The notes beneath the pieces were generated by a model. It did not search any database and had not been told where the DNA came from. It worked only from the letters and a program-made list of their open reading frames with translations. Below are positions 5,791 to 25,421 of a stretch of 41,245 bases of DNA, piece by piece (the first letter of the stretch is position 1; each line of letters starts with the position of its first letter). A program made the translations under genes and the position numbers. This DNA is from Acidimicrobiaceae bacterium (GTDB lineage: Bacteria > Actinomycetota > Acidimicrobiia > Acidimicrobiales > JACDCH01), in contig JBEEFX010000315.1 in NCBI GenBank assembly GCA_041166365.1, positions 1 through 41,245 on the forward strand, written 5' to 3'.

Positions 5791-5828
5791 AACGCGCGTC
5801 CTTCGGGCGGTTCGTCCGCGGGTGATGG

Positions 5829-6761
5829 CTACTCGGAGAGATCGAGCGCACCGACCGTGGTGGGCCGGCCGGTCACGACGTCGACCAGCGGCATCGAGGC
5901 CATGACCTCCTGGCGACGCTCGAACGGCAGGAACGTACGGACACCTTCCGGCGAGAACGACTCACGAAACCTCGACGGGGCATAGCTCTCCTCCACACTC
6001 GCGGGGGGAACGCCGCCGAGCACGTCATCGCGCACGAAGAACACGTTGTTCCCGGCGGAGTTCCCACCGACGAGGGTGTAGCCCTTCTCGCGGCCGAGGT
6101 GCTCGAGGGCGGCGATGGAGGCGCCGTAGTACAGCCGCGAGTAGTGCGCATCGACTCGAGTGAATGACGGGTCGTACGGGATGCTCACCGCATCACGCCA
6201 ACCGAACGTCGAGTTGTACTCGGCGACGACGATGCGGGGACTGATGCAGTCGATCGCCTGCCACACCCAGTAGTCGTTGCCGTCGATGTCGACCGACAGC
6301 AGGCCGATGTCACCTTTGATGCCGTTGCCGGAGATGAGGTCGTTGATGTTGTCGCGATCGATGAACGCGCACACGGCATCGAGGCCGTAGTACAGGTAGG
6401 GGCGGTCGGCCTGGATGTACGCGATGCCCTCGGCATTGCCATCCATCACCAAACCCCGCCAATTGTCGTTGTGCAACAGGTACCGCGTGTTGCACTCCGT
6501 GTAGCGCGTCACGCCGAACTCCACGAACACCGGATTGGGGATCTCGACGTTGCGGACGAGGTACTGGATGATCCCGTCCTCGCCCCACTGCGAATGGACC
6601 TTGAACTCGTGGTCGCGGAGGCGGCGGGGTGCAGTCGGAAATCGCATCTGCTGTTCGAGATGCCCCACCTGACGTTGGAGCATCTCCACGTTCTGGGCCA
6701 TCGAGCGGACGGCCTTCACCAGGTCCGACAGCGACCGCGCGTAGCGAATCGGCGACTTCAT
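5829..6761 (-). CDS. FkbM-family-like SAM-dependent methyltransferase (last gene of the glycan operon)
   Basis: HSQWGEDGIIQYL followed by VFVEFGVTRYTECNTRYLLHNDNWRGLVMDGN matches the N-terminal pattern I associate with FkbM/Methyltransf_21 proteins of polysaccharide loci. There is an N-terminal coiled-coil-like stretch. The ATG overlaps the upstream stop (ATGA at 6758-6761). Confidence 0.65.
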   Translation of the reverse strand: MKSPIRYARSLSDLVKAVRSMAQNVEMLQRQVGHLEQQMRFPTAPRRLRDHEFKVHSQWGEDGIIQYLVRNVEIPNPVFVEFGVTRYTECNTRYLLHNDNWRGLVMDGNAEGIAYIQADRPYLYYGLDAVCAFIDRDNINDLISGNGIKGDIGLLSVDIDGNDYWVWQAIDCISPRIVVAEYNSTFGWRDAVSIPYDPSFTRVDAHYSRLYYGASIAALEHLGREKGYTLVGGNSAGNNVFFVRDDVLGGVPPASVEESYAPSRFRESFSPEGVRTFLPFERRQEVMASMPLVDVVTGRPTTVGALDLSE

Positions 6762-7921
6762 CTCACCAGCCCTCTGAGCGCTTGGCCTCGGTCATCCGAA
6801 TCCTGGATTCGCGAGTCGTCGATCGCCGCCAGCACGTTGTCCCGGAGTCGCGAGCCCACCACATCCCAGTCGTAGCGCTCCTTCGCGAGCTGTCTGCTCC
6901 TCGCGCCGTACGCCGCCTGCAACTCGCGGGCGCCGACCAGGTCGCGGAGCGCCGATGCCAACGCGGCCGTGTCCCCAGGAGGGACGAGCCTCCCGTTGAT
7001 TCCGTCCTCCACCATGTCGGGCACCGCACCGATGTCGGAGGCCACGATCGGCAGCCCGGCGTCGAGTGCTTCGACGAGCACCACTCCGAATGGCTCGACA
7101 TGGGTCGGAAGGCAGAACACGCCAGCGCGTGCGAGGTGCTCGCCGACTTCCGAGGGAGGGATGCGCCCGACGACCGTCACGCCGTCCGGTACAGGCTGTG
7201 GATCGCACCCCACCACGGTGAGCGTCGCCGTCGGATGGGCGGCGCGGACCGCTTCCCAGGCTGCGAGAAGGTCGGGGCCACCTTTTCGCTTCCAGTCCCC
7301 GCCGATGAACAGCACCTCGTTCGGATCGCGACCGACGGAAGGACCCGTACGCACCGGCACGTTCGCACCCATGTACACGCAGCGGACCTTGTCTTCCGGG
7401 ACCCCATAGCGCTCCACGAGCGAGCGCGTGACGTTGGTGCTGCGAGTGAGGACGACCGCCGCGTGATCGAACACCTGACGCTCGGCTTCGATCCAGCCGC
7501 GCGAGTAGAGGTGGCGCGGATCGAACGACGGATACGAGAGGTTCGTGAGGTGCGTGTGATCGGTGTACACGACGTGTGGCACGCCCGGGATCGAGCCGTC
7601 GAACAGCGACTGCATCTGGAACGTCGCAGTCCATTCCTGGCCCGCGAGCGTCTCCAACACCGTCTCGCGCAGCAGATCGAACGCGGTTCTCGTGCGGAAC
7701 ACGGCCTTCTTCGGATCGTGATGGCCGCGGAGTACTTGCGGCGCGTAGCGGAGCCCCGCGACAGCGATGCGCGCCAGGCGAAGCACGTGCTTCCGGAAGG
7801 CCAGCTTCACGTCGAACGCGACGATGTCGTACTCGGGCAGTTGCTCGACCAAGACGTCGTGGACGGTCCGGTTGGCGAGCGGCCGCACGCCGAACCGCAG
7901 GTAGGCGATGCGCGGCTTCAT
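6758..7921 (-). CDS. Glycosyltransferase family 4 (GT-B)
   Basis: Start set at MKPRIAYL (ATG 7921, ATGA overlap with the upstream stop). The C-terminal domain has VLFIGGDWKRKGG, FCLPTHVEPFGVVLVEALDAGLPIVASDIGAVPDMVEDGINGRLV, the E-x7-E type GT4 signature. The N-terminal 180 codons of the long ORF are Arg-rich shadow. Confidence 0.85.
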   Translation of the reverse strand: MKPRIAYLRFGVRPLANRTVHDVLVEQLPEYDIVAFDVKLAFRKHVLRLARIAVAGLRYAPQVLRGHHDPKKAVFRTRTAFDLLRETVLETLAGQEWTATFQMQSLFDGSIPGVPHVVYTDHTHLTNLSYPSFDPRHLYSRGWIEAERQVFDHAAVVLTRSTNVTRSLVERYGVPEDKVRCVYMGANVPVRTGPSVGRDPNEVLFIGGDWKRKGGPDLLAAWEAVRAAHPTATLTVVGCDPQPVPDGVTVVGRIPPSEVGEHLARAGVFCLPTHVEPFGVVLVEALDAGLPIVASDIGAVPDMVEDGINGRLVPPGDTAALASALRDLVGARELQAAYGARSRQLAKERYDWDVVGSRLRDNVLAAIDDSRIQDSDDRGQALRGLVR

Positions 7922-9093
7922 GGCGCGCCTGGCGTGCTGCGCTGTGGTGTCCAGACATCGCGCCGGTTGCCCCGCGCCAATTCCGCCATCGCCCGTAGGA
8001 CGGCCACATTGACGAGGTCGAAGTACGTTGCCATCGCCGCCACCCGGAGGACCGCACCCTTGCGCCGGCCGCGGCGATGCGCGAACCATCCGAGCGCCGC
8101 CAAACCGTGGACTCCGACCTGAGCGGCTGTGGCCGCGCGGTACATGCGACCTCTCCGCCACAGGAACGGCGACACGATGGCCAGCAACACGATCGGGATC
8201 GCGACCAGCCGTCGCACGATCTTGTGAGACGCGAGTTGGATGGCGTACCAGCCGTGCGTCAGAGGATTCAGGGCGCGCCGGTGCTCCCACACGCTGCGCA
8301 GACCGCGCGCGATGTATCGCGCCTTGCGCCGGGCCTCTTCGCGTACGTCCTGTTCGACCGGACCGGTGGCCGTCGCCGCCGGCTCGAACACCAGTCGGTG
8401 ATGCGCTTCGGCGACGCCAACCGACGTGAAGCTGTCGTCGGCCACACCTGACGGCACCGGACTCCACAGCGTCCGCCGTACCGCGTGGAGCTGCCCGGTG
8501 GCGGACGTGACCGAGCCTGCCCGCGTCTGCAACTGCTTGGTGAAACGGTCGATGCTCCAGTACGTCCGCTCACCCTCCCCTTGAGCGCCGTCGGCCACGT
8601 ACTGGAAGTCGCCGGCGACACCGCCCACCTCCGAATCGGCGAACGGAGCGACCAGCGCGCGGAGCGAATCGACACCCACCTTCGTGTCGGCATCGCTGAA
8701 CACGAGCACCTCACCCGTGGCGCAGGCGACAGCGTCATTGAGGGTCGGGTTCTTCCCTCGGCGGGGCAGGTCGAGCACGATGGGCTTGGTCGGGTGCGTC
8801 GACGCGATCGCCACCGTGGCGTCGTCCGAGCCGTCTGACGCGACGATCACCTCGAGGGAGTCCGGCGGATAATCGATGGCGGCGACATTCGTCAGCTTGT
8901 CCGCGATCACGGCGGCCTCGTTGTGCGCCGCGATGATCAACGAGACCGTCGGGGTGATGGGAGCCCGTCGCACAGGACGTGGGGCCGCCACGGCCCGCAC
9001 CCCCAACAGGAGAGGGAATCCGAAGTAGGCGTAGGCAACGGAACCCGCCGACCCCCAGAACACTGCCGTGCGGAGCCGCATCGACGAGTTCAC
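7918..9093 (-). CDS. Glycosyltransferase family 2 (GT-A) with C-terminal membrane helices
   Basis: VSLIIAAHNEAAVIADKLTNVAAIDYPPDSLEVIVASDGSDDAT and VLVFSDADT (DxD) are visible, plus hydrophobic N- and C-terminal segments. GTG start at 9093 (GTGA overlap with the upstream stop); an alternative ATG lies at 9081. Confidence 0.85.
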   Translation of the reverse strand: MNSSMRLRTAVFWGSAGSVAYAYFGFPLLLGVRAVAAPRPVRRAPITPTVSLIIAAHNEAAVIADKLTNVAAIDYPPDSLEVIVASDGSDDATVAIASTHPTKPIVLDLPRRGKNPTLNDAVACATGEVLVFSDADTKVGVDSLRALVAPFADSEVGGVAGDFQYVADGAQGEGERTYWSIDRFTKQLQTRAGSVTSATGQLHAVRRTLWSPVPSGVADDSFTSVGVAEAHHRLVFEPAATATGPVEQDVREEARRKARYIARGLRSVWEHRRALNPLTHGWYAIQLASHKIVRRLVAIPIVLLAIVSPFLWRRGRMYRAATAAQVGVHGLAALGWFAHRRGRRKGAVLRVAAMATYFDLVNVAVLRAMAELARGNRRDVWTPQRSTPGAP

Positions 9094-10241
9094 GGCAGCA
9101 GCTCCTCGTAGAGCTTCTCGAACTGGCTGACGGTCCCCTCGATGTCGAACTCCGCGGTCACACGCTCTCGCGCCGATTGCCCCAGTTGAGCGCGCCGCGC
9201 CGGGTCGCGCGCGAGGAGTTCGAGCGCGGCGGCGAGTCCATCGACGTCGCCGGGTCGGATCAGGAGACCATCGACCTCGGGACGCACGATGTCAGCAGCC
9301 GCGCCAACGTCGGTCAGAACGACGGCGGTGCCACTGGCGCACGCTTCGAGCGCGGCATTCGAGAGGCCCTCGGCCTCCGAGCACAGCACGAAGATGTCCG
9401 CCGCGCTGTAGAGCGGTGCGACGTCGTCCTGAATGCCGAGGAACCGGATGCGGTCGTCACCGGCCGCCTGGGCTTCGAGCGCGGCGCGTTCTGAACCGTC
9501 GCCCGCGATCAACAGGACCAGGTTCGGATTCGGCAGCCGGCGACACGCACGAACGAGATCACCGACGCGCTTCTCCGGAGCCAGACGGCCGACGGCGAGA
9601 ACGATCACGGCGTCGGCGTCGAGCATCAACCGGTTCCGCAAGGCCAGTCGTTCGGTCAACGTGCGTTGTCGAAAGCGATCGGAGTCGATGCCGTTGCGCA
9701 CCAAGCGCACTCGATCCGACGGCACGCCCAAACCCTGGATCTCCTCGCAGATCTCCTCGCTGACGCCGACGAGCATCGCTGCGCGTCGAGACAGCGCCGC
9801 AACCCGCCGCCGACCCGTCCTTCGAGAGCCGTAGCGCTGCACGTCGCCGATCGGCCCGCTGCGGTGGGCCACGGCTACGAGCGGCACTCGGCGGAGCCTG
9901 GTGGCCAGCAGCCCGACGCGCGCGGTCGACAGGAACTGGTGCACCTGCACGACATCTGGTCGCAGTCGAAGGACACGGATCGTCGCGGCGACAGTGAACA
10001 CGACAGAGGCGAGTACCTTCGGTCCCCTGACGCGAATGCGATGGACCGGGATGCCCCGGATGAGTTCGAACGGAAGTGTGCCGGGGTCGCGGCGACAGAC
10101 CACCGAGGGCTCGAAATGCCGCTCGCGCAGCCTCGCGGTGACCGCAGCGCGCTGACGCTCGATGCCCCCAATGCGCGGGTAGTAGCCGTGCGAGACCACC
10201 GCAATCCTCGGGCCTCGCCCGCCGGCATCACCCGGGCGCAT
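9090..10241 (-). CDS. Glycosyltransferase family 4 (GT-B)
   Basis: Start at MRPGDAGGRGPRIAVVSHGYYPRIGGIERQ (ATG 10241, sharing 1 nt with the Wzx stop). The C-terminal part has VLAVGRLAPEKR and FVLCSEAEGLSNAALEACASGTAVVLTDVGAAADIV. The upstream 312 codons of the 696-aa ORF overlap the Wzx gene in another frame and are Arg-rich. Confidence 0.85.
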   Translation of the reverse strand: MRPGDAGGRGPRIAVVSHGYYPRIGGIERQRAAVTARLRERHFEPSVVCRRDPGTLPFELIRGIPVHRIRVRGPKVLASVVFTVAATIRVLRLRPDVVQVHQFLSTARVGLLATRLRRVPLVAVAHRSGPIGDVQRYGSRRTGRRRVAALSRRAAMLVGVSEEICEEIQGLGVPSDRVRLVRNGIDSDRFRQRTLTERLALRNRLMLDADAVIVLAVGRLAPEKRVGDLVRACRRLPNPNLVLLIAGDGSERAALEAQAAGDDRIRFLGIQDDVAPLYSAADIFVLCSEAEGLSNAALEACASGTAVVLTDVGAAADIVRPEVDGLLIRPGDVDGLAAALELLARDPARRAQLGQSARERVTAEFDIEGTVSQFEKLYEELLP

Positions 10242-11770
10242 CACACCACCACCGGTCTGCGGCGCAGCGTCGCTCGAAGCTCGTCGACGATGACCCGGCC
10301 GCTGAAGTACACCGTGACGAGGTACGCCGCGCCTCCGGCGAGCGTGACGAGCGTCAGCCGAAGGGCCGGTGCGGCGCCTTCGAGCAGGGCGTGCGTGCCC
10401 ATCGCAGCAGGAACGAGTACCGCCACGCCCACGGCCGCGGGCCGCAACGCGTTCAGCAGCGGCCGGACGCCGGCACCGATCAGGCGTGCGGCGATCGCGA
10501 GTTGCACCACACACCCGGCGCCTACCAGCGCCGTTTGCGCGGCGGCAACCGCAACGATGCCTCGGTCGGCCACGAGCAACAGCACGACCACGGTCACCAC
10601 GAGCCGTGCGGCGGTGATGATCCACAAGATTCGCTGGCGGCCCAACGCCTTGTAGACGTCGCCGGCCACGAACACGATCGACTGCGCGATGAAGTACAAC
10701 GAGATGAGCGACAACACGGGTGCGGTCGTCGCCCACCGTTCCCCGTACGCAACGTGGACGAAGTCCTGCGCGATCACGGCGATTCCGACCCCGAGCGGCG
10801 CGGTGACCAACGCGAGTGCGGACACTGCACGCAAGTACGTGCTCCGCAGCGCGGTGCCACCGGCCCGCAAGCGACTGAGCGCGGGGAAGAAGGCCTCGCT
10901 GACGGCGTAGGTCACTCCCATCAAGACGAGATCCGGAAGGCGAAAGCCGAGCGTGTAGCGCCCGAGCTCGGCCGCGCCCAGCCGCTGGCCCACGATCAGG
11001 TAGTCCACGTCCCGGGCCACGACGGCCAGGAACGTCACGAGCATCATCCCGCCGCCGTACGTCAGGATCTGACGGGCGGTGTCGCGGTCGAAATTCCATC
11101 GCGGCCGCCAGGGCAACGCCTTCCAGTAGACGATCGTCGACACGGCCACTCCCGCGAGCTGGCCCCACACCAATGACCACACGCCGAAGCCGGCAGCAGC
11201 AAAGCCGACGGAGACGACGGCCTTCACCGCGCTCTTCGCCAACTCAGGAACGACCCGCCGTCGGAAGTTCATCATGCGCCGCAGGCGTGCCGAGTGCACC
11301 GCCGACAGGCTGACGAGAACGTACGAGAGCGCGAGGATCCGCATGATCGGGACGAGGTCGGGCTCGTTGAACAGCCTCGCCATCGGTGCGGCGGAGAAGG
11401 CGACCACTGCAGCGGCCGCGATGCCGGTGGCCATCGTCATCACGAATGCCGTCGACGCGGTGGTCTCGTCGTCGCGATCGAGATAGATGATCGCCTGGCC
11501 GATGCCGAAGTCGTTCAGCGCGTCGACGTACGTCATGATCGCGAGGCTCAAGCTCATGACACCGAAGTCGTCGGGTGCCAGCAGGCGTGCGAGGACGACG
11601 GTGGAGGCAAACAGCGCCAGCTTCGACCCGACGAAGGCGGCGTAGCTCCACAGCACGCCGCGCACCGCCGCCCGCCCGATCCCCGGCGGGGTCGGCGTCA
11701 GTCCGCCTTCGTCTGCACGAGGTTCGACGCCGACGGTGTCCGGCGTCGCCTCCCTCAGCGTGGAGCTCAA
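10241..11770 (-). CDS. wzx: Wzx-like oligosaccharide flippase (polysaccharide biosynthesis protein, MOP superfamily)
   Basis: About 12 hydrophobic segments. The N-terminal pattern GVLWSYAAFVGSKLALFASTVVLARLLAPDDFGVMSL is typical of PST-family flippases. TTG start at 11770; a downstream GTG start is possible. Confidence 0.8.
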   Translation of the reverse strand: MSSTLREATPDTVGVEPRADEGGLTPTPPGIGRAAVRGVLWSYAAFVGSKLALFASTVVLARLLAPDDFGVMSLSLAIMTYVDALNDFGIGQAIIYLDRDDETTASTAFVMTMATGIAAAAVVAFSAAPMARLFNEPDLVPIMRILALSYVLVSLSAVHSARLRRMMNFRRRVVPELAKSAVKAVVSVGFAAAGFGVWSLVWGQLAGVAVSTIVYWKALPWRPRWNFDRDTARQILTYGGGMMLVTFLAVVARDVDYLIVGQRLGAAELGRYTLGFRLPDLVLMGVTYAVSEAFFPALSRLRAGGTALRSTYLRAVSALALVTAPLGVGIAVIAQDFVHVAYGERWATTAPVLSLISLYFIAQSIVFVAGDVYKALGRQRILWIITAARLVVTVVVLLLVADRGIVAVAAAQTALVGAGCVVQLAIAARLIGAGVRPLLNALRPAAVGVAVLVPAAMGTHALLEGAAPALRLTLVTLAGGAAYLVTVYFSGRVIVDELRATLRRRPVVV

Positions 11771-11774
11771 CCCG

Positions 11775-13163
11775 TCACCCGATCCGCTCGGCCAGCGCCC
11801 ATCGGCCCGTCGAGGAGGTCTTGTCGGACGGACCGGCCGTGCCGGCCGGATCCTCCTCGTGGGTCAGGATCGTCTGCCGCGACGCGAGGCACAGCCCTAC
11901 CAGGCACCAGAACAGCCGCGGGTAGGCGAGGTGGAGGAAGAGCCCGGCCGTGAGGAACCCGAAGCAGGCCACCGTGAGACCCTCGGCGATGGAAGCGCTG
12001 ACGGGATCGGCGCGACGAGCGGTCCTGCGAACCGCGACCCACATGAGTGCGAGCACCGCTCCGAGTTGCACGAGACCGATCGCGCCGGTCTCCGCGGCCT
12101 GTTGGAGGAAGAGGCTGTGCGCGTTGCGGTCATTGGCGTCGTTCTCGACCCCGAGGCGCGACGCATATTCCGGGTACGCCGCCGGGAAGCCGTTGGTGCC
12201 GATCCCGACAAGCGGATGATCGACGAACATGTCGTAGGCCGATCGCATCTCGGAGAAGCGACCGAGCACCGCGGGGTCATCGACGGCCGTCGTGCCGCCC
12301 CGCAGCTGCCCGAGCTCGTCCAAGCGCGCGAAGAAACCCGATGGCGCGAACACGGGTACCGCGACGATCGCCGCGAGCGCCATGACCCCGACGGCCGCCC
12401 ACGACCGAAACCAGGCGACGCCGACCACGAGCACAGCGGCAAGTGCGATCAGGCCGCCGCGGCTGAGGGTCAGGAGGACCGTGATGCTCCCAACGCCGAC
12501 TGTCACCAGCGCGAGCGTGCGCAGCAACCGACGCGGCTCGCGAAATGCGCGCTCCAGCGCGAGCGCAACCACCACGACCATCGACTGGGCAAAGAAGTTC
12601 GGGTCACCGAGCGGCCCGGCGGCGCGGTTGCCCTGGGTGGTCCCGACGACACCGACCAGCGGCGCCTTGGCCAACTCCATGTAGGTGTTGTGGTAGTCGC
12701 CGCGAGCGAACTGCAAGCATGCGATGCCACCGAGCAGGAGGCCCGCAGTGATCACGCCGTACACGGCGGACTTCAACGCTCCTGGTGTGCACACCGCGGC
12801 AACGAGCCCGACGATCACGGCGCCGTCGCGGACGAATTCGAGCACGGCGGGCATGACCTCCGCCTGGTTGAGCGCCGCCGGCCAGCCGAGCAGCATCACG
12901 GCGGCGCGGGTACCCAACAGCACCAAGGTCAAGGGCACCGCCGTTGGCGCGTAGCCGCGCTTCGCCGCGGCCGACACACCGAGAACTCCGACCGCGATTG
13001 CGAGCGGGACGGTGATCGTCGGAACATGAAAGCGCGACTCGGCGATCTCGGGCAGGCGCGTGAACAAGCAGAACGTCAGCAACCCCGCGCCGAAGGCCGG
13101 ACGGCCGAGCAGCACGAACGCGCCGACGATCGCCGCTACCGCGAGGAGCGACAGGATCACCAT
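11775..13163 (-). CDS. wzy: Wzy-like polymerase / O-antigen-ligase-family membrane protein
   Basis: Polytopic membrane protein with a large loop carrying GFPAAYPEYASRLGVENDANDRNAHSLFLQQAAETGAIGLV. The H-x-x-(F/L)L-x-x-x-x-E-x-G pattern is the Wzy_C/O-antigen ligase hallmark. Confidence 0.78.
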   Translation of the reverse strand: MVILSLLAVAAIVGAFVLLGRPAFGAGLLTFCLFTRLPEIAESRFHVPTITVPLAIAVGVLGVSAAAKRGYAPTAVPLTLVLLGTRAAVMLLGWPAALNQAEVMPAVLEFVRDGAVIVGLVAAVCTPGALKSAVYGVITAGLLLGGIACLQFARGDYHNTYMELAKAPLVGVVGTTQGNRAAGPLGDPNFFAQSMVVVVALALERAFREPRRLLRTLALVTVGVGSITVLLTLSRGGLIALAAVLVVGVAWFRSWAAVGVMALAAIVAVPVFAPSGFFARLDELGQLRGGTTAVDDPAVLGRFSEMRSAYDMFVDHPLVGIGTNGFPAAYPEYASRLGVENDANDRNAHSLFLQQAAETGAIGLVQLGAVLALMWVAVRRTARRADPVSASIAEGLTVACFGFLTAGLFLHLAYPRLFWCLVGLCLASRQTILTHEEDPAGTAGPSDKTSSTGRWALAERIG

Positions 13164-13191
13164 TGGCGTGTGGTTCGCGCGGCGAGGATCA

Positions 13192-18434: not shown

Positions 18435-19318
18435 TTGGCGATCAAGGGCAGTCGGCGGCGACCGAGACGGAAGCCGAGCTCGCGATCGAGCGCATCGTTC
18501 GGCTCGATGACCTCGAAGCGCTTGCGCTGCCACGCGGCCTGCGATCCGTAGTGGCACATCAGCGCGAGCCGCGTTCCACGCTCGACGAAGCCGCCTCGGT
18601 GATAGCCCGCCGTGTTGGCGAACACGATCGTCCCGGACGGCCCCGTTGCGATCCGCCATGCCTCCCTCGGAACGCACGCGGCCATCGCGTCGTCGTCGAC
18701 ACGCGGCACGTAGGACGAAGGGGTCGCGGCCGGGGCGATGTCGTGCAACACGCCGCCGGGCTGCGTGCCCGGGATGTAGCCGAACGGGCCACCTTCCGGG
18801 CCGACGTCGTTCAGGTAGACGAAGCATTTCAACATGCGGCGGTCAGCCGGCCGGTCGCGGTGCCACAGCTGCGCGCCGGAAGGCTCACCGGAGATCGGGA
18901 CCGATCGCCACAACTTGCATTCGACGACTTGCACCGACAGGCCGAAGAACCCATCGGCGACGGCCAGGAGCTCGGGCGCCATCGTCAGCGCGAGCGACGG
19001 GTGCGTGTGGGACAGCCGGGGGAGATTGCCGAGCAGCGAGATCGGGCCCTCCTCGTCCACACCGGACCGGCCCGTGCTGTCGTTGTCCGGCACCATGGCG
19101 CGGAGCGCGTCGAACGCGGGCCGAGCCGATGGCAGCGCGTCGATGCTGCTCGTCGCCACGCCCTCCGACTGGAGCTCGACGAGGATACGAGCCACCTCGC
19201 TCGTCGCGGAGGCGGGCCGGCGCCGATGCGCGAGCGTCGGTCCGAGGTTGAAGCCCCAGCGCCAGAGCACCTCGCTCGATCCTCGTACCGTCCGCAGCAC
19301 CGACCATCGCACGCCCAT
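18431..19318 (-). CDS. Phytanoyl-CoA-dioxygenase (PhyH)-like Fe(II)/2-oxoglutarate-dependent oxygenase
   Basis: LWHRDRPADRRMLKCFVYLNDVGPEGGPFGYIPGTQ (HxD facial-triad motif in its usual PhyH context) and a distal TIVFANTAGYHRG histidine. Confidence 0.62.
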   Translation of the reverse strand: MGVRWSVLRTVRGSSEVLWRWGFNLGPTLAHRRRPASATSEVARILVELQSEGVATSSIDALPSARPAFDALRAMVPDNDSTGRSGVDEEGPISLLGNLPRLSHTHPSLALTMAPELLAVADGFFGLSVQVVECKLWRSVPISGEPSGAQLWHRDRPADRRMLKCFVYLNDVGPEGGPFGYIPGTQPGGVLHDIAPAATPSSYVPRVDDDAMAACVPREAWRIATGPSGTIVFANTAGYHRGGFVERGTRLALMCHYGSQAAWQRKRFEVIEPNDALDRELGFRLGRRRLPLIAK

Positions 19319-19329
19319 CGGCTACGCCG

Positions 19330-20349
19330 TCACGTGATCGCGCCGCGGTAGAGCGAGATGAGCTCCCGATCCGACAATGCGTGGTCGTTCTTGCGACCGA
19401 TGAAGTAGTAGCCGGACGCCGCGTCGTAGCCGCCTGGTCGGGTCGCGAGGAACGGGTCGAGATGCTTCAACGGGAACGCCAGCGCACTCCCCACGTTCCA
19501 GAGCACGCTCCGGAGGACACGCGAGCGGGGAAAGCTCACGAGGAAGTACTGGAACGACCACGCCAACGCCATGCCGGGCCCGCAGGCCGGCCCACTCTCC
19601 ACTTCGGCGAAATTCCGGAACAGCCGGCGATGGCCGAGGTGCGTGAATCGGGTGAAGTCGTAGCGACCCATGTGAACCTGTTGCATGAACGGCGTCTCGG
19701 CGAAGACGAGACCGTCCGGCTTCAGCACCCGGTGGATCTCCTCCACGCAGCGGTACGGGTCGGCGACGTGCTCGAGAACGGCTTGGACGATCACTCCGTC
19801 GAAGGAGTCGTCCTCGAACGGCACGTCGTGAGCGTCACAGATCAGCACTGTTCTGGGACCGAACGACACGTTGCTCTCGACGATCTCGATGCGCGGTTCC
19901 TGTGCGAGCGCGTCCATTCCCCGGCCGAGCTCGAGGCCTCCCCCGAGGACGAGCAACCGAGGGCTGTCGTTCTGCTCGACGAGCAGCTGGGCGAGCGTGG
20001 CGCAGTTCTTCGCTGCGTTCAGGTTCTTGCTCGTGCTCGGGATGGCGCGCTTGATCCGTCGTCGAAGCCGGCGACCCCGGCTGGCCGCGGCCTGCCGGTT
20101 CAGCTCCGGTCGCCGCGACTCGACCAGCTCGGCGGTCGTGAAGATGCTGTTGCTCTCGTTGAGCAGCACGGGGACACCGTCGACGATCGGAAAGGTGGTG
20201 GCGCACGCCTCGTCGACGCAATGGAACTCGGACGCGATCTGCTCGAGCCCGGCTCGGCACACCGGACAGCGGAGTCGCTCGACCACCGCGGGCTCGAGCC
20301 TCACATCGGCGAGCGGGGTGCGCGGTTCGATCATCGGAACGACTGCCAT
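19330..20349 (-). CDS. Class I SAM-dependent methyltransferase with N-terminal Trm112-like zinc-ribbon
   Basis: Start at MAVVPMIEP (ATG 20349). The N-terminus has RLRCPVCRAGLEQIASEFHCVDEACATTFPIVDGVPVLL (CxxC...C..C ribbon). A methyltransferase core follows: LLVLGGGLELGRG, CDAHDVPFEDDSFDGVIVQAVLEHVADP, VLKPDGLVFAETP. Confidence 0.75.
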   Translation of the reverse strand: MAVVPMIEPRTPLADVRLEPAVVERLRCPVCRAGLEQIASEFHCVDEACATTFPIVDGVPVLLNESNSIFTTAELVESRRPELNRQAAASRGRRLRRRIKRAIPSTSKNLNAAKNCATLAQLLVEQNDSPRLLVLGGGLELGRGMDALAQEPRIEIVESNVSFGPRTVLICDAHDVPFEDDSFDGVIVQAVLEHVADPYRCVEEIHRVLKPDGLVFAETPFMQQVHMGRYDFTRFTHLGHRRLFRNFAEVESGPACGPGMALAWSFQYFLVSFPRSRVLRSVLWNVGSALAFPLKHLDPFLATRPGGYDAASGYYFIGRKNDHALSDRELISLYRGAIT

Positions 20350-20351
20350 CG

Positions 20352-21131
20352 TCAGGCGACCTTGATCATCTTCATGACGACGTACCGCGCATACCGGCGC
20401 GTTGCCGGCCAGCGACGGAAGATCGCCTGATCGACACGGGCAAGGTTCGGAAGACGAACCTTCCACGCATACGGAAACGCGCGTTCCACCATGGACAGGA
20501 GCTGCAATTCCTGCCACTCGTAGATTCCGGCCCAGGAACCCCAAGCACGCAGCTCGGCGTCGTCGAACGGATGGTCGTCGCCGACGGGGTTCTTGTTGGG
20601 GTACGGCACGTGATCGCGGACGTACGACAGCACTGGGTTGATCCCGAGCGGTTCGATGAAGCACGCCCGTCCTCCCGGCACGAGCATCCGTTCGAGATGC
20701 GGTGCGGCGAGCGTTGCGTCGAGGTGATGCAAGATCGCCCGGCCGAAGATGATGTCGAACGACTGATCGTCGAAGGGCGGATCCTCGGCGTTCGCAACTT
20801 GGAGACGCACGTCGCGGAATCCGTTGGCGTCACAACGCCTCCGAGCCAGGTCGACGCTACCTGCCGAGATGTCGAAGCTCGTGACCTGCGCGCCGGATGC
20901 CGCCAGGAGCACGGTGAGGAACCCCGAGCCGCAGCCGTACTCGAGCACCCGCATCCCACGGAGGTCGCCCATGAATGCGCGGACGCCCACTGACAGCGAA
21001 TCGCGTTCGCAATACGCCGCGAAGTTGTCGCCAGGCGACATCAGCAGGCTCTGGTCGGCCTTCGCCGCCGAGACCGCGTCCCACTTCTCTGCTTCGCGTT
21101 CGGCGATCACTGCTCGTTGCGCGGCGGTCAT
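20352..21131 (-). CDS. Class I SAM-dependent methyltransferase
   Basis: MRVLEYGCGSGFLTVLLAASGAQVTSFDIS (motif I), ANAEDPPFDDQSFDIIFGRAILHHL and LVPGGRACFIEP. ATG 21131 in an ATGA overlap with the upstream stop. Confidence 0.82.
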   Translation of the reverse strand: MTAAQRAVIAEREAEKWDAVSAAKADQSLLMSPGDNFAAYCERDSLSVGVRAFMGDLRGMRVLEYGCGSGFLTVLLAASGAQVTSFDISAGSVDLARRRCDANGFRDVRLQVANAEDPPFDDQSFDIIFGRAILHHLDATLAAPHLERMLVPGGRACFIEPLGINPVLSYVRDHVPYPNKNPVGDDHPFDDAELRAWGSWAGIYEWQELQLLSMVERAFPYAWKVRLPNLARVDQAIFRRWPATRRYARYVVMKMIKVA

Positions 21132-23710
21132 GGCAGGTAGAACTTCCACCGGTCGAACACCGCGGTCCACGGCGTCGACGCGGTCGACGACACCACCACA
21201 CCGGACAGCGACGCCTGGTTGAACCAGAGCTGTTGGTGCACGACGTCGAAGATGTTGCTACCGACCACGGTGCCCGAGTTGGTGCCGTCCGTGCGGTAGA
21301 CGACGTACTGGTAGCCGATCCGAGCGGTGCCCGCGAACAGACGCAGGGTCAGGTCGACGTAGCGCACCGTCGCGCAGTCACTCACCGGTGCTGTCGCGAG
21401 CACGGATCGGACGCCGAGCTCCTCCTTGATCACCTGGACCTCGGTCGCCGCGCCGGCGTTGGCAATGACGAGCTTGTACGTGTGGTCCTGGTCGGGACCG
21501 AAGAACACGCCGGCTTCGGTGCGACCGTCGCTCGGAAGGCACAACGGTCCGTTCAGCCTCACCGAGACCCGCTGGTTGTCCGCCTCCGTCGCGTCGATGA
21601 CGTTCGCCAGCATGTTCGCCTGGTTGTTCGCCGTACCGTCAGTGGTCCCCGGACGGGCCGTGATCGACAACGTTCCGGCAGACGGCGACAGCAGGAGGTC
21701 AGCGGGCACATGGCCCGTCGCCGGCCCGACGACGGTCTTGAAACCGGTACCGAGCCCGTTGCGGTCCGCGAGCGTTCCCGCGGTTGCGGTGGAGAACGTG
21801 CGCTCGAGTGGCGTGCTCGCACCATTCGTGGGGAACGTCGGCGCGACGTTCGTCATCAGCCACATCAAGTCGTTGTAATCCCAGTTCTTCGCACTGTCGC
21901 CGGTGGGGTCGAACAGCACGAGGTACGCGTTCGGGATCAGCGCGCCGCTGGGATCGCGAGCGGGATAGAAGCGGAAGTTGTGCAGGTTGTACTTGTTGAA
22001 CCGCTCGTCGGAGAAGTCCGAGTAGTAGCTGTACAGGCCGAACACCCCCGAAGGCGTGAACGACGTGTCACCGCGGACCTCGGGGAACAAGCGTTGGTTC
22101 TGCCCACCGCTGATGTCGGACCCTCCCGGATACGTCATCACGAAGTGACGCGTCGGGACCGCGGTCTGAGAGGGAGGCGCGAAGTTGGCCCAACCGGTGG
22201 CACCCTGCTCGAAGTCGACGCGGTTCGAGAACTTGGCGAGCGGCACCATCCCGACCGGTGCGTTCGTGTCGACGCGCTGCCAGTACGGCGAGATGATCTC
22301 GTCACCCTTCGGCAGTTCGCAGTCGGCGCGCTCGACGGAGCCGGTCTGCTGGCACGACTTGTAGCCGGACCACCCGACGTTCGTGGTGTACCCCAGGAGG
22401 TCCACGATCGCGGCGACGCTCGGCTCCAAACTGCCCTCGTAGCCATCAGCGTTGAGGCCCCGCAACGCCACCTGCGTCGTCGGCGTGGCTTGGTCGGACG
22501 AAGAGACCGTCAACGTGGCGAAGTTCTCGACTCCTTGCGCGGTCGGGCGGAACTCGATCGCCACCGGCCGGGTCTCGCCCGCCGGCACGACGAACGACGA
22601 GGGTTGTCCCGCCGCGAGTTGGAAGTCGGCGGCGTCCGGCCCACTGATCGCCAGCCCGTTCACGTTGAGCGGACCGGGACCGTTGTTGCGCACCGTCAGG
22701 CTCTTGCCCGGTCGGGCCTCGTTGGCGACGGTGCTGAACACCAGCCGCAGGCCCGTGCGAAGACGGTCCTCCGGACTGGTGACCTGGATCGAGCCGCTCG
22801 CCGAGACGCCCGTCGAGAAGGACGACGCAAACGGTTGGAACGGGTCGGCCGTCGGCGTGCGCAGCGCGCTCGTCACCGCGACCTGATACGTAGCGAGACT
22901 GGCGAGCGGCGCGGTCGGGTCGAAGGTGATGGTCCCGCTCGGGCCGTCCGTGGCATACGCGCCGGCGACGGGGCCGTCTGGCCCGGTGACGCTCACCGAC
23001 GAGCTCGAGACCGACGCGGGATCGATCGCCTGGTTGGCGGTGATCTGGATGTTCGCGGTCTCGGAGACGCCCGAGGCGCTATCGGTCGGCACCACCGCCG
23101 CCACCCGTGGGGTGACGTCGACGATGTCGATGTAGCACAGCTTCGTCTGCGTGCCGCCCGTGGGATCGAGCGTGAGACGTCCGTCGGTGACCGTGACACG
23201 CTTGGTCGCGGTCAGGTACAGGTTCGACGTCGTCGGCACGAAGTTGTCGACGAGCACCACACCGCCGTCGGCGGTGAGCCGATGGACGGAGTCGGTGTAG
23301 CTCGGGTCGCCGACGGCCACGGTGACCTCATAGGTGCCGTTCGGCAGCGCGTGCTCCCAACGACCGGGCGTCGTCACGCCATTCGTGCCCTGGTATTGCA
23401 TGTTGACGTGCGTGTCGAGCCGTTCGTCGTCGAGATTCACGTTTCGGTTGCGCCCGTTCCCGACGAGCGAGAGTGGATCGGAGGTGTCGACGCGGACCCA
23501 GCCGTAGCCACGCGTGGCGTCATACGGCTGGCCGTAGTCGCGGACGTAGCCGGCAGGCACCGGGCCGGTGTCCCGCTGGAAGTTCACACGGTCGACGTAT
23601 CCGCCCGCGGCGGCCGCTGGTGCGACCGACGTGATCAGCGGGATCGTCAATGCTCCGAGGAAGGACAACGCCGCGAGCGCTGCTCGACCGCTTCTCAAAG
23701 ATTTCGTCAT
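21128..23710 (-). CDS. Secreted 860-aa multidomain protein: carbohydrate-binding-like module, Ig-like (Big_5/SbsA-type) repeat, ASH/choice-of-anchor-D-like domain, DUF4114-like segment, C-terminal beta-sandwich-like domain
   Basis: Signal peptide MTKSLRSGRAALAALSFLGALTIPLITSVAPAAAA. The N-terminal module (RGYGW, VTVAVGDPSYTD, VTVTDGRLTLDPTGGTQTKLCYI) is paralogous to 4105-5790. AAVVPTDSASGVSETANIQITANQAIDPASV...VSVTGPDG looks Ig-like. LTVRNNGPGPLNVNGLAISGPDAADFQL looks ASH/choice-of-anchor-D-like. NWDYNDLMWLMTNV is a DUF4114-like motif. All domain names are tentative. Confidence 0.72.
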   Translation of the reverse strand: MTKSLRSGRAALAALSFLGALTIPLITSVAPAAAAGGYVDRVNFQRDTGPVPAGYVRDYGQPYDATRGYGWVRVDTSDPLSLVGNGRNRNVNLDDERLDTHVNMQYQGTNGVTTPGRWEHALPNGTYEVTVAVGDPSYTDSVHRLTADGGVVLVDNFVPTTSNLYLTATKRVTVTDGRLTLDPTGGTQTKLCYIDIVDVTPRVAAVVPTDSASGVSETANIQITANQAIDPASVSSSSVSVTGPDGPVAGAYATDGPSGTITFDPTAPLASLATYQVAVTSALRTPTADPFQPFASSFSTGVSASGSIQVTSPEDRLRTGLRLVFSTVANEARPGKSLTVRNNGPGPLNVNGLAISGPDAADFQLAAGQPSSFVVPAGETRPVAIEFRPTAQGVENFATLTVSSSDQATPTTQVALRGLNADGYEGSLEPSVAAIVDLLGYTTNVGWSGYKSCQQTGSVERADCELPKGDEIISPYWQRVDTNAPVGMVPLAKFSNRVDFEQGATGWANFAPPSQTAVPTRHFVMTYPGGSDISGGQNQRLFPEVRGDTSFTPSGVFGLYSYYSDFSDERFNKYNLHNFRFYPARDPSGALIPNAYLVLFDPTGDSAKNWDYNDLMWLMTNVAPTFPTNGASTPLERTFSTATAGTLADRNGLGTGFKTVVGPATGHVPADLLLSPSAGTLSITARPGTTDGTANNQANMLANVIDATEADNQRVSVRLNGPLCLPSDGRTEAGVFFGPDQDHTYKLVIANAGAATEVQVIKEELGVRSVLATAPVSDCATVRYVDLTLRLFAGTARIGYQYVVYRTDGTNSGTVVGSNIFDVVHQQLWFNQASLSGVVVSSTASTPWTAVFDRWKFYLP

Positions 23711-24336
23711 GCTCCATCTCTCTTCATGACTGACGCGAAGGTCGAAGTCACGACCTTCACGTCAGTGAAAAACGACATGTCCCGGATGTACGCGAGATCC
23801 ATCCGCAGGCGTTCGTCGAACGTTGCGGAGTTGCGCCCCTTCACCTGCCAGTAGCCGGTGATGCCCGGACGCACCTCGAGCCGCGCGGTGTGCCACAGGT
23901 CATAGGTGTCGACGGCGAACGACGTCGGCCGCGGGCCGACCAAGCTCATGTCGCCGACGAGGACATTCCACAACTGCGGCAGCTCGTCCAAGCTGGTCTT
24001 ACGAAGAAACTTTCCGAGGCGCGTGATCCGCGGATCGTCGATGAGCTTGAAGTCCGGCCACGGGACGATCGAGAGATGCCGCAGCTCGGCCTTGAGCTCT
24101 TCGGCATTCCGGACCATCGTGCGGAACTTGAGCATCCGGAAGCGACGGCCGTGCAGCCCGGTGCGTTCGGCCGCATACACGACCGGGCCGGGCGATTCGA
24201 TGCGAATGGCCAGCGCGATGAGAAGGAGCGTCGGGGAGATCAGGATGAGCCCGACGAGGGCGACCAAGATGTCGATGGCGCGCTTCACCGGGGCGTAGCG
24301 AATCGATGGCATCTCGATGGCCGAAATCGCACTCAT
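23707..24336 (-). CDS. Polyprenyl-phosphate sugar-1-phosphate transferase (small 'bacterial sugar transferase', PglC/WcaJ C-terminal type); priming enzyme
   Basis: KRAIDILVALVGLILISPTLLLIALAIRIESPGPVVY, RFRMLKFRTM, DELPQLWNVLVGDMSLVGPRP and RPGITGYWQV are the canonical motifs of this family. ATG in an ATGA overlap on both sides. Confidence 0.9.
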   Translation of the reverse strand: MSAISAIEMPSIRYAPVKRAIDILVALVGLILISPTLLLIALAIRIESPGPVVYAAERTGLHGRRFRMLKFRTMVRNAEELKAELRHLSIVPWPDFKLIDDPRITRLGKFLRKTSLDELPQLWNVLVGDMSLVGPRPTSFAVDTYDLWHTARLEVRPGITGYWQVKGRNSATFDERLRMDLAYIRDMSFFTDVKVVTSTFASVMKRDGA

Positions 24337-25028
24337 GACGCGCCCCGCATCTGGTCCGCACCAGGCGTTTCGCTCTGCAGCTCAGCCTTGTTCCGCAGGT
24401 CGATGACGAGATCTGCCGTCTCGGGTGCTGTGCGGCGACCGGACCCAGCGGCGCGGCCTGGACCCAGGTGCACACCGTCGAGCGCCGCGAGCAACGCACC
24501 ACACGTCATGCCGTCTTCCGGGAACGTCGCGATGGTCATGAACCCAGCAGTTCGTTCCGAGGCGAGCATCTCCTGCAATCGGCGCGCCGCGTATTCGGAC
24601 CCCTCTCGCCCCTCCTCCGGGAGCAGCAGATAGGTGTCCAACTGGTCCGACCACATGAAGTCCGACTCGCGCACCACCGACGCCAGCCGCGCCTCGGCGT
24701 CGGCGAAAGCTTTGAAGCGGATGATCGAAAGATGCAGTTCATGCCGTCGCGCGCGCGCGAGCTCGCGATGCAGGATGTCGGTCCCCTCGTTGCCGCCGGT
24801 CGACGGGGTACGCGCCGCCTTCGGCCGCTGTTGACCATCGAACGCGCGCAGGAGAACGCAGAACGTGGTGGCGCCGCCGAACGCGGCGACGAGAATCGAC
24901 ACGGAGGGTGAGGTCTGCACGATGATGAACGACCCGAGGAGTGCTATCTCGCCCACGAGTAGTGCCGCCCAACGGCCGCCCAGCCGCTTCAGGGGTGGGT
25001 GACTGACCCCACTGCTATGGCGTGTCAT
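24333..25028 (-). CDS. Membrane protein with degenerate GGDEF-like cytoplasmic domain (first gene of the operon); possible c-di-GMP-binding regulator
   Basis: Start set at MTRHSSG (ATG 25028, GGGGA 9 nt upstream). There are two hydrophobic helices (AALLVGEIALLGSFIIVQ, SILVAAFGGATTFCVLLRAF). Then RRHELHLSIIRFKAF...VRESDFMWSDQLDTYLLLPEEGREGSEYAARRLQEML aligns in length and pattern with R-x-x-D-(5)-GGDEF-x-x-x-L-P of GGDEF domains. QLDTY sits at the GGDEF position and an RESD at the I-site position. The upstream substrate and metal-binding block is missing. Confidence 0.55.
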   Translation of the reverse strand: MTRHSSGVSHPPLKRLGGRWAALLVGEIALLGSFIIVQTSPSVSILVAAFGGATTFCVLLRAFDGQQRPKAARTPSTGGNEGTDILHRELARARRHELHLSIIRFKAFADAEARLASVVRESDFMWSDQLDTYLLLPEEGREGSEYAARRLQEMLASERTAGFMTIATFPEDGMTCGALLAALDGVHLGPGRAAGSGRRTAPETADLVIDLRNKAELQSETPGADQMRGAS

Positions 25029-25297
25029 TGAATTCCCCAGACTGAATCGCCGCCGCGACTTCGTACGGTGAGCTTCGCAATTCGCTGTTGTACGGACGAA
25101 AGCGACGTTACGGGCTCGATGTTGCTGACAGATGACGACTGTGTCAACTGCAAGAACACACACCGTGTTCATTCGTTCGCAGGCGATGACTTTCCTGCTC
25201 GCGCGACGAGCAGTTCACCGCACGCTCCGCGCGGCCAACGCGGCGTGCCGTGATTCGCGCAGAGCGTGCTGAAGACGTGCACGCGCTCAAGAAGGGG
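25029..25297 (-). promoter_or_regulatory. Promoter/leader region of the glycan operon (AT-richer intergenic region with a TTGACA hexamer and several inverted repeats)
   Basis: This is the only sizeable non-coding stretch adjacent to the operon. The minus strand has TTGACA at 25147-25142. Inverted repeats: TGACA-N11-TGTCA (25126-25146), GAACAC-N5-GTGTTC (25154-25170) and the palindrome CGTGCACG (25276-25283). No convincing -10 hexamer sits at 17-18 nt spacing (CAACAT). Confidence 0.35.
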
Positions 25298-25369: not shown

Positions 25370-25421
25370 GAGGAAGCGATGCTAGTTGTCGTGTTCCGCG
25401 AGCCCGTCGAGAGTCCGTCGG

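Follow-up and report, generated by a model that had tools for sequence, protein, structure and literature searches.

Comparison with described systems

Among the loci through which monoderm bacteria produce capsule or exopolysaccharide (EPS) by the Wzx/Wzy-dependent route are the streptococcal cps loci. We analyzed a locus of this kind on contig JBEEFX010000315.1 of an Acidimicrobiaceae bacterium (assembly GCA_041166365.1), with attention to a small GGDEF-like membrane protein, g17, and the priming transferase gene g16 that follows it. The window, meaning the whole stretch of DNA that was analyzed, is 41,245 bp long with a GC content of 67%, and 17 minus-strand open reading frames (ORFs; g1 to g17) are packed into positions 5829-25028. 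The locus resembles the Wzx/Wzy capsule and EPS loci of monoderm bacteria, such as the wps/imp clusters of Actinoplanes missouriensis (PMC13390465), in its phosphoglycosyl transferase (PGT), its glycosyltransferases of families GT4 and GT2, and its Wzx, putative Wzy and Wzz-type polysaccharide co-polymerase (PCP) proteins. It also shares with them short-chain dehydrogenases/reductases (SDRs) acting on nucleotide sugars, embedded tailoring enzymes and glycoside hydrolases, a nearby LytR-CpsA-Psr (LCP) gene and a co-directional gene order. On the other hand, the locus lacks the tyrosine kinase/phosphatase pair, its PGT is a minimal monotopic enzyme of 209 aa preceded by the GGDEF-like protein, a conserved secreted multidomain protein (753 to 1442 aa) is encoded after the PGT gene, and a PhyH-type dioxygenase is present in its tailoring cassette. 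The locus is broadly ordinary as a Wzx/Wzy glycan locus, and the module of g17 and the PGT is the part worth following.

Degenerate-GGDEF receptors are known from several EPS systems, namely PelD (Pel), PssE (Listeria Pss), YdaK (Bacillus ydaJKLMN) and BcsE (cellulose) (PMC2170427, PMC4125290, PMC5422440, PMC8461298). PelD binds cyclic diguanylate (c-di-GMP) through an RxxD motif and a downstream Arg (PMC8461298). Like these receptors, g17 is predicted to be membrane-anchored or associated with the synthesis machinery and is encoded inside a polysaccharide operon, and its GGDEF-derived domain keeps the RxxD motif and the downstream Arg without the cyclase motifs. It differs from the PelD-type receptors in being much smaller, with two transmembrane (TM) segments, about 110 further aa and no GAF domain, and in having an internal deletion of the substrate-binding segment. 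Whereas the partners of PelD-type receptors are synthase-dependent, g17 is paired or fused with a monotopic PGT of the Wzx/Wzy pathway, and its ligand binding is a prediction. The assignment of g17 as a PelD orthologue was rejected: PelD consists of four TM segments, a GAF domain and a degenerate GGDEF domain and is encoded in a pel operon, whereas g17, of 231 aa, has two TM segments, lacks a GAF domain and is encoded in a Wzx/Wzy-type locus devoid of pel genes. Nor is g17 an orthologue of PssE, YdaK or BcsE.

Conserved pairing of g17 with the priming transferase

The two genes at the head of the locus are as follows.

24333-25028, minus strand: g17, 231 aa, with two TM segments and a cytoplasmic domain (residues ~75-231) that is GGDEF-like but degenerate, as judged from its family profile
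23707-24336, minus strand: g16, a small (209-aa) monotopic PGT, the priming enzyme (Bac_transf, 5.7e-67; TIGR03025, 5.7e-81)

The initial annotation had described g16 as a small phosphoglycosyl transferase, and the Bac_transf match together with the catalytic motifs (the DELPQ dyad and GPRP) and a KFRTM motif confirms this description. It had also described g17 as a membrane protein with a degenerate GGDEF domain. Homologues of g17 were searched for in the full representative library, and 49 sequences were aligned to find invariant residues and to build a family profile. Among the matches listed, 388 cluster representatives had E<=1e-3, and all of those listed were small proteins of 119-271 aa. 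Ten family members whose records were looked up were unnamed or labeled "hypothetical protein". E89, R92, R94, R95, R120, D123, R150, P170 and T175 were invariant across the 49 sequences.

The family profile matched GGDEF cyclases of the PDB (3ign, 1.1e-5; 6d9m, 1.2e-4; 6zxm, 1.4e-4; DosC, 1e-3), and Pfam searches with the 49 members gave matches to PelD_GGDEF (13 members), GGDEF_2 (6) and GGDEF (2). Compared with 3ign, 6d9m and 6zxm, the g17 family has a deletion of approximately 12 residues that spans NDxxGHxxGD of the FKxxNDxxGHxxGD substrate segment, and it has variable residues in place of GGEEF (QLDTY in g17 here). R120-x-x-D123 aligned exactly on the RxxD inhibitory site (RQSD of 3ign), and R150 aligned on a conserved Arg of 3ign. 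Because of these profile matches, the PelD_GGDEF matches and the aligned RxxD and Arg, the degenerate GGDEF call is supported at the level of the family profile, with an RxxD that is invariant in the alignment.

In order to examine the pairing of g17 with the PGT, 60 genome loci were collected with a degenerate DNA pattern representing the C-terminal g17 motif, and 46 of them carried a strong g17-family ORF. A small PGT gene was located immediately downstream of the g17-family gene on the same strand in all of the loci that had room for one (43/43). These PGTs were 57-71% identical to g16, and the loci came from Chloroflexota and Actinomycetota. On the other hand, 80 loci from many phyla had small PGTs with a lower identity to g16 (43-56%), and a g17-type domain was present in only three of these. 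In each of the three, a single ORF encodes the g17-like domain in frame, N-terminal to the PGT; these fusions are in one Anaerolineales and two Planctomycetota metagenome-assembled genomes (MAGs), in loci L163 (1822-3600), L174 (2287-3585) and L112 (2497-3585). The gene order at these loci shows that the g17-family protein and the PGT form a conserved pair, and the invariable adjacency and the fusions are strong evidence for a physical partnership between them. A 227-aa protein of a Kineococcus locus was considered as a g17 homologue and rejected, as it resembles a Wzz-type protein. The literature search brought up no publication that connects a GGDEF-like protein with a PGT.

Possible function of the g17 family

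Based on the retained residues and the partner, we infer that g17 is a c-di-GMP-type regulatory partner of the priming step. A more specific and tentative proposal, possible but held at less than even confidence, is that the g17 family constitutes a new class of second-messenger receptor that would bind c-di-GMP and directly switch a monotopic PGT on or off.

Several observations weigh against a c-di-GMP-type role of g17. The g17 sequence alone gave no match in Pfam, NCBIfam or the PDB even at lenient thresholds, and the GGDEF link was visible at the family-profile level only, with modest E-values. The RxxD motif is not strictly retained, since the orthologue in locus L001 has RAGE and the L163 fusion has a shifted RTD. 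Finally, no c-di-GMP-metabolizing gene was found within the 41,245-nt contig.

The lack of a GGDEF match for g17 alone and the RxxD exceptions would also suit a different role, in which g17 serves the small PGT as a structural or membrane-organizing subunit, for example by scaffolding it or by linking it to the other components of the machinery, has lost nucleotide binding and senses no second messenger. The disappearance of the substrate-binding segment and of the GG(D/E)EF motif is consistent with such a role, and the adjacency and fusion with the PGT show a partnership, not a ligand. However, all 49 diverse members have R120, D123 and R150, an invariance that is hard to explain for a purely structural protein. 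These residues align with inhibitory-site residues of active cyclases, and the same residue set is needed by PelD for c-di-GMP binding (PMC8461298). A purely structural g17 is considered rather unlikely.

Conserved backbone and variable cassette

Related metagenome loci were reached through homologues of g15, and their flanks were judged as far as the DNA was fetched. The genes compared, in the order of transcription, are listed below, beginning with those that proved to be conserved.

21128-23710, minus strand: g15, an 860-aa secreted all-beta protein (Big_5, 5.6e-11; choice_anch_D, 3.4e-10)
15248-16219, minus strand: g9, an SDR nearest to UDP-glucuronate 4-epimerases (Epimerase, 6.4e-58)
13965-15251, minus strand: g8, a WcaL/EpsE-like GT4 with a probable non-canonical CTG start (NF041876 EpsE, 5.2e-58)
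13192-13968, minus strand: g7, a Wzz/PCP-like co-polymerase with no kinase domain (PF02706, 31 bits against a cut-off of 25.5 bits; TM segments at residues 7-25 and 168-186)
11775-13163, minus strand: g6, a polytopic membrane protein with a Wzy_C domain, the putative Wzy polymerase (PF04932, 2.3e-21; about 12 hydrophobic segments)
10241-11770, minus strand: g5, a Wzx-type MOP (multidrug/oligosaccharidyl-lipid/polysaccharide) flippase (Polysacc_synt_3, 2.6e-78; at least 10 hydrophobic segments)
9090-10241, minus strand: g4, a GT4 glycosyltransferase (Glycos_transf_1, 2.7e-34; Glyco_transf_4, 1.4e-23)
7918-9093, minus strand: g3, a GT2 glycosyltransferase with two C-terminal hydrophobic segments (Glycos_transf_2, 2.3e-22; L001 orthologue 59% identical)
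6758-7921, minus strand: g2, a GT4 glycosyltransferase (Glyco_trans_1_4, 4.7e-27; L001 orthologue 53% identical)

The genes between g15 and g9 are the following.

20352-21131, minus strand: g14, a class-I S-adenosylmethionine (SAM) methyltransferase, variable (Methyltransf_11, 8.1e-20)
19330-20349, minus strand: g13, a class-I SAM methyltransferase with an N-terminal Trm112-like Cys4 ribbon, variable (Methyltransf_11, 1e-15; YcaR/Trm112-like, 2.5e-4)
18431-19318, minus strand: g12, a cytoplasmic PhyH-superfamily Fe(II)/2-oxoglutarate dioxygenase, variable, assigned from its family profile
17229-18434, minus strand: g11, a GT4 glycosyltransferase, variable (Glyco_trans_1_4, 5.5e-40)
16216-17232, minus strand: g10, a GalE/UXS/RmlB-like SDR, variable (GDP_Man_Dehyd, 5e-59; the PDB matches are a mix of GalE and UXS)

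In L001-L003, the order g17-g16-g15 (g15 of 1442 aa) is followed directly by g9-g8-g7-g6-g5, a GT4 fused to g4, and g3-g2, with identities of 33-68%. None of g10-g14 is present there; for g10, only a 31% paralogous match on the g9 orthologue was obtained, and g11 has no orthologue in L001. In L005/L006, g17-g16-g15 (g15 of 753 aa) is followed by g14-g12-g11, an inverted g10 and g9-g8-g7. L005/L006, at identities of 54-75% to the present locus, thus have four of the cassette genes (g14, g12, g11 and g10) and are without g13. In L005, g14 and g11 have orthologues of 75% and 66% identity, respectively, g10 lies on the opposite strand and g13 has no match. The g15 orthologues follow the PGT gene in L001-L003 and in L005.

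This comparison of gene orders shows that g17-g16-g15 followed by g9-g8-g7-g6-g5-g4-g3-g2 is the conserved backbone and that g10-g14 is a variable cassette. From the collinearity of L001-L003 and L005/L006, it is apparent that g17, the PGT and the large secreted protein are the conserved head genes of the locus family. The cassette sits between backbone genes that are adjacent elsewhere and has start-stop overlaps with the backbone at both of its ends (21128 and 16216).

The locus had initially been described as having an atypical tailoring set. This holds in so far as g10-g14 form a variable tailoring cassette, but g15 and g17, which had been counted among the atypical genes, belong to the backbone shared with related loci. 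The tailoring content is also less exceptional than had been claimed, as actinobacterial Wzx/Wzy clusters with internal methyltransferases and glycoside hydrolases have already been described (PMC13390465). Within the reach of the searches made here, this gene order was not found with a chemically defined product.

Glycan assembly genes

Domain calls were made by Pfam, NCBIfam and PDB sequence searches, and membrane proteins were characterized by counts of hydrophobic segments. By its gene content, the locus is supported as a Wzx/Wzy-type glycan operon: the PGT, the flippase, the Wzy_C protein and the Wzz protein were all matched by hidden Markov models (HMMs), as proposed initially. The Polysacc_synt_3 match bears out g5 as Wzx; its match to the MOP flippase model NF007773 (7.9e-57) was under the curated cut-off, as were all of its NCBIfam equivalog scores. 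The Wzy_C domain of g6, which has a 43% identical orthologue in L001, agrees with the Wzy call, polymerase activity being putative. The PF02706 score above the cut-off and the two TM segments likewise agree with the call of g7 as a Wzz-like co-polymerase without a kinase domain. Four GT4 enzymes (g2, g4, g8 and g11) and one GT2 enzyme (g3) were found by HMM, in accordance with the earlier count. In L001, the counterpart of g4 is the C-terminal half of a GT4-GT4 fusion protein, with 59% identity.

Nucleotide-sugar and tailoring enzymes

Pfam confirmed g9 and g10 as the two SDR epimerases/dehydratases that had been claimed. In the PDB, g9 matched the 6zl6/6zla group best (1.7e-71), then MoeE5 (1.5e-62), with WbpP, WbgU and GalE ranking lower. 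The 6zl6 group is a Bacillus UDP-glucuronic acid (UDP-GlcA) 4-epimerase, and MoeE5 is a UDP-GlcA 4-epimerase as well. These matches uphold the earlier call of UDP-GlcA 4-epimerase-like motifs in one of the SDRs. A g9-like gene was present in 21 of the 46 g17 loci, often beside g17-g16 pairs in other phyla. Since g9 resembles UDP-GlcA 4-epimerases, galacturonic acid is a likely component of the product.

The dioxygenase g12 by itself gave no Pfam match, and its PDB E-value was only 0.06. When its family was examined (g12 and 13 homologues), 11 of the 14 members matched PF05721, with a best E-value of 9e-10, and the family profile matched solved PhyH-type enzymes of the PDB at 6e-4. H153, D155, H240 and R250, corresponding to the HxD...H iron triad and the 2-oxoglutarate Arg, were invariant in the 14 sequences. 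The earlier assignment of a PhyH-type Fe/2-oxoglutarate dioxygenase is upheld by these family matches and invariant residues, and g12 is a divergent enzyme of this type that is probably active. The family profile matches PhyH enzymes such as phytanoyl-CoA dioxygenase-like proteins, ectoine hydroxylase, leucine hydroxylase and MysH, with which the iron triad and the Arg are common. Compared with these enzymes, the g12 family is very divergent, g12 itself falling under Pfam detection.

The g12 family recurs in glycan loci and beside g15-like secreted proteins, which hints at a functional link between g12-type dioxygenases and such secreted proteins or their glycan. Homologues with 28-34% identity to g12 were observed within approximately 1.5 kb of genes for g15-like secreted proteins in L004 (4040-5008), L013 (7503-8273) and L038 (3969-4736). 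Their hosts are Kineococcus rhizosphaerae and two Nakamurella MAGs, and none of these is a syntenic locus. Three methyltransferases had been counted in the block; two of these, g13 and g14, are class-I enzymes by domain match, and the third, taken to be g1, has no family match.

Secreted proteins and the LCP gene

Two genes that flank the 17-gene block are considered here together with g15.

4153-5790, plus strand: a secreted GHL15 protein, convergent with the block, candidate glycanase (signal-peptide-like N-terminus; PF14885 GHL15, 1.9e-18)
25422-26876, minus strand: an LCP-family protein with a LytR_C domain (PF03816, 2.1e-31; PF13399, 2.3e-16)

The description of g15 as an 860-aa secreted multidomain protein was borne out by domain matches and fold prediction. 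It consists of a signal peptide, a beta-sandwich (residues ~38-198), a Big_5 immunoglobulin-like (Ig) domain, a choice-of-anchor-D Ig domain, a beta domain with no Pfam match and a concanavalin A (ConA)-like sandwich. AlphaFold2 gave a mean predicted local distance difference test score (pLDDT) of 88.6 for the full-length protein, and a pLDDT of 87.6 and a predicted template modeling score (pTM) of 0.84 for the C-terminal part alone. The C-terminal ~430 aa form a two-part region with no Pfam model. In Foldseek searches, the best matches of this region were two-domain xylosidases of glycoside hydrolase (GH) family 43 (E 1.6e-9, TM-score 0.37-0.40), and the last ~200 aa matched ConA-like lectins, GH16 enzymes and DUF1349-type proteins, with target-normalized TM-scores of up to 0.71. 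GH43 beta-xylosidases and ConA-like proteins (legume lectins, GH16 and DUF1349-like proteins) are the closest structural relatives of this part; however, g15 has no sequence similarity to them, no five-bladed propeller of normal size and no assignable catalytic residues. Several acidic, His and Arg residues of the region are invariant across actinobacterial and cyanobacterial homologues; the invariant g15 residues include E429, E471, H577, R580, D601, N609, D611 and D614.

The fold search with full-length g15 was dominated by Ig-repeat proteins, namely ciliary HYDIN-like chains and S-layer proteins. An exact-sequence look-up, a single-protein genome scan and a PDB sequence search with g15 returned nothing. 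The C-terminal family also occurs in cyanobacteria, often as several paralogues per genome and in some cases near small PGT and GT4 genes; such copies were seen in Gloeobacterales ES-bin-141 (L014, L015, L018 and L019) and Aphanocapsa lilacina (L021, L022 and L025).

In BLASTP, the N-terminal beta-sandwich of the GHL15 protein was homologous to residues 26-194 of g15 (32% identity over 174 aa, E 2e-13). Because this module is shared by two secreted proteins that flank the locus, it is suggested that both act on the locus product. The GHL15 gene (4153-5790) therefore probably belongs to the system, beyond the coordinates originally proposed for it. The LCP gene that had been reported across the tRNA is present, as its PF03816 match indicates, and its product may attach the polymer to the wall, as judged from its proximity.

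It is also conceivable, but improbable, that the locus encodes a protein O-glycosylation system, in which g6 would be an O-oligosaccharyltransferase or ligase and g15, as a surface protein of S-layer type, would be the carrier of the glycan. Ligases are among the members of the Wzy_C family, the best NCBIfam match of g6 is the putative O-glycosylation ligase TIGR03097 (2.3e-24), and the second NCBIfam match of g5 is an O-glycosylation flippase model; these O-glycosylation scores are, however, far below the curated cut-offs (144.9 against 720, and 86 against 188). In addition, g7, the Wzz chain-length protein, adjoins g6 and implies polymerization. The position of g15 right after the PGT gene is conserved, and the S-layer protein SbsC has Ig-like domains similar to those of g15. 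On the other hand, the N-terminal module of g15 recurs on a putative glycoside hydrolase, with which glycan binding fits better, and g15 homologues bear enzyme-like partner domains (such as GSDH and Kelch propellers).

Locus organization

All 17 minus-strand ORFs claimed at 5829-25028 are present and end at the stop positions given for them. When the junctions were recomputed, the ten 4-nt ATGA/GTGA start-stop overlaps (at 6758, 7918, 9090, 13965, 16216, 17229, 18431, 21128, 23707 and 24333), the CTGA overlap at 15248-15251 and the 1-nt overlap at 10241 were all reproduced. The largest gap is 28 nt (13164-13191), as had been stated. Overlaps thus account for 12 of the 16 junctions, and the other four have gaps of 2, 11, 28 and 4 nt. 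Coupling by 4-nt overlaps is common in high-GC operons, and the junction pattern is therefore real but by itself not unusual. Over 7.7 kb, the window shares 99.5% identity with a contig of MAG GCA_041166665.1, which is labeled as an Acidimicrobiaceae bacterium.

Two features lie immediately upstream of g17.

25029-25294, minus strand: leader, likely promoter region of the operon
25295-25370, minus strand: tRNA-Arg (CCG), between the LCP gene and the operon (ARAGORN; Rfam tRNA, 62.8 bits)

The leader is AT-richer than the cluster, as the initial annotation had noted, with a GC content of 59.4% (minimum 48%) compared with 67.6%. No Rfam element, riboswitch or other RNA element was found in the leader, and a scan with the sigma-70 consensus gave no site, a result that is uninformative for this phylum. 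Between 5600 and 25500, three terminator-like sites were seen on both strands together, compared with 7.2 in shuffled sequence. The 38 nt that separate g1 from the convergent GHL15 gene (5791-5828) include a 9-bp inverted repeat, CCATCACC...GGTGATGG, that lacks a T-run. A terminator in this gap was rejected, as the folding energy of the hairpin was no better than that of shuffled sequence. An origin as a genomic island beside the tRNA was also considered and set aside, as the GC content showed no deviation from the flanks.

It is improbable that the 17 genes are several units, with the backbone, the g10-g14 cassette and g1 transcribed independently for different glycans and joined by recombination, because although the cassette is absent from L001-L003, L005 has g10 inverted and g1 on the other side of the locus, and the junctions of 2, 11 and 28 nt could hold internal promoters, all of the genes are co-directional, most junctions overlap with no gap above 28 nt, terminator-like sites are fewer than expected by chance, and the cassette is inserted between otherwise adjacent backbone genes with an overlap at either end.

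Start codons

The putative CTG start of g8 is the best available call. No ATG, GTG or TTG is available upstream of GTG 15116, and the conserved N-terminus of WcaL/EpsE-type GT4 enzymes, LTVAYVVSRFPKLTETFV, is encoded upstream of this GTG and can be aligned with orthologues whose own ATG or GTG start codons fall in this region. In the translation from CTG, the match to the EpsE profile starts at residue 17. The CTG at 15251 overlaps the stop codon of g9 and is preceded by GGAG six nt upstream. The 383-aa call for g8 on the 99.5%-identical MAG contig, which begins at the internal GTG, is probably truncated. That call (L007 4664-4794; here 15116-15251) was observed to drop the conserved N-terminal strand and to leave an apparent gap of 131 nt.

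For g12, translation from the ATG at 19318 gives a protein whose first 16 residues are conserved with a 54%-identical homologue, which supports this start. Both a 231-aa and a 207-aa form of g17 are on record. With this analysis, two probable start-codon errors in public annotation are corrected.

The g1 family and other genes on the contig

The last gene of the block belongs to neither the backbone nor the cassette.

5829-6761, minus strand: g1, a cytoplasmic protein of 310 aa from a very large uncharacterized family (no Pfam, NCBIfam or PDB sequence match)

Among 8000 scored candidates, 7202 were homologues of g1 with E<=0.001, and they came from several phyla. In the aligned subset, the homologues were 49-79% identical to g1, the identity being 49-58% even in Cyanobacteria and Betaproteobacteria. 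PF05050 (FkbM, Methyltransf_21) was matched faintly by three homologues only (E 0.06-0.14; 12.7-14 bits against a cut-off of 22.7 bits). Neither did g1 itself match PF05050, nor did its family profile find a meaningful relative in the PDB. An FkbM-type methyltransferase function for g1 is thus not supported, as the PF05050 matches are below the gathering score and no PDB relative was found. In L005, a 77-79% identical copy of g1 lies upstream of the locus and is transcribed divergently. Genes for a NeuB-like synthase, a 330-aa uncharacterized protein, g1, a g10-like SDR and a GT4 were also observed in the same order in three unrelated genomes; the g1 copies in these glycan loci are at L100 6001-6906, L101 6001-6918 and L102 6001-6969.

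Elsewhere in the window, a gene for an FrhB/FdhB-like Fe-S protein (F420 hydrogenase/dehydrogenase beta subunit family) is located at 29099-30247, near genes for an acyl-CoA dehydrogenase and a SnoaL-like protein. FrhB/FdhB-like proteins are in some cases partners of polysaccharide pyruvyl transferases, none of which was seen here. A co-directional group on the plus strand at 31320-34108 seems to have no connection with the glycan locus; it encodes a histidine phosphatase, a DUF3090 protein, a PI3/PI4-kinase-like protein and a DUF6183 protein.

Proposed pathway and implications

Taken together, the block is probably a Wzx/Wzy-dependent heteropolysaccharide assembly operon, with gating by g17, decoration by the cassette and extracellular roles of g15 and the GHL15 protein as proposed below. 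By homology, g16 would prime the polyprenyl-phosphate carrier, and five glycosyltransferases (g8, g4, g3, g2 and g11) would extend the primed lipid to a roughly hexasaccharide unit. The unit would be exported by g5 and polymerized by g6, with its length controlled by g7. From its content of an SDR, a GT4, a dioxygenase and methyltransferases, the cassette g10-g14 is predicted to add one extra residue and to decorate it by O-methylation and/or hydroxylation. It is proposed that g17 senses a nucleotide, most likely c-di-GMP, and gates priming by g16. Outside the cell, g15 and the GHL15 hydrolase may bind and trim the finished polymer, whose attachment to the wall may be the task of the LCP protein.

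Some points count against this pathway, in addition to those raised for g17. Wzy_C domains are also found in ligases and O-oligosaccharyltransferases, and the polymerase activity of g6 is assumed. No recognizable catalytic domain was found in g15, whose likeness to GH43 enzymes is weak (TM-score ~0.4), and no GHL15 homologue was found beside the related loci in the DNA fetched. An LCP gene was seen beside neither L003 nor L005 as far as they were fetched. No gene for UDP-glucose dehydrogenase, which would supply UDP-GlcA, is present in the locus. We infer a single transcript for the 17 genes from gene spacing only. Nevertheless, a structural g17, protein O-glycosylation and independent modules each fit fewer of the observations than the regulated Wzx/Wzy assembly operon does.

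The product of the locus is not predictable. This is normal for Wzx/Wzy loci, and the locus is one more case of their large diversity. Three families in glycan loci are left without a functional model, namely that of g1, that of the g15 C-terminal domain and the divergent PhyH clade that includes g12. The g17 family adds a previously unannotated, GGDEF-derived family whose gene immediately precedes that of a conserved small priming transferase in all informative genomes examined, in two phyla, and that is fused to the transferase in three further lineages. If the receptor proposal is true, the g17 family would bring post-translational nucleotide control to the priming step of Wzx/Wzy glycan synthesis, whereas PelD, PssE, YdaK and BcsE act in synthase-type systems. 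Should the g17 domain sense c-di-GMP, a second messenger would act directly on a checkpoint at the priming of lipid-linked glycans, in soil and freshwater phyla that have been little studied.

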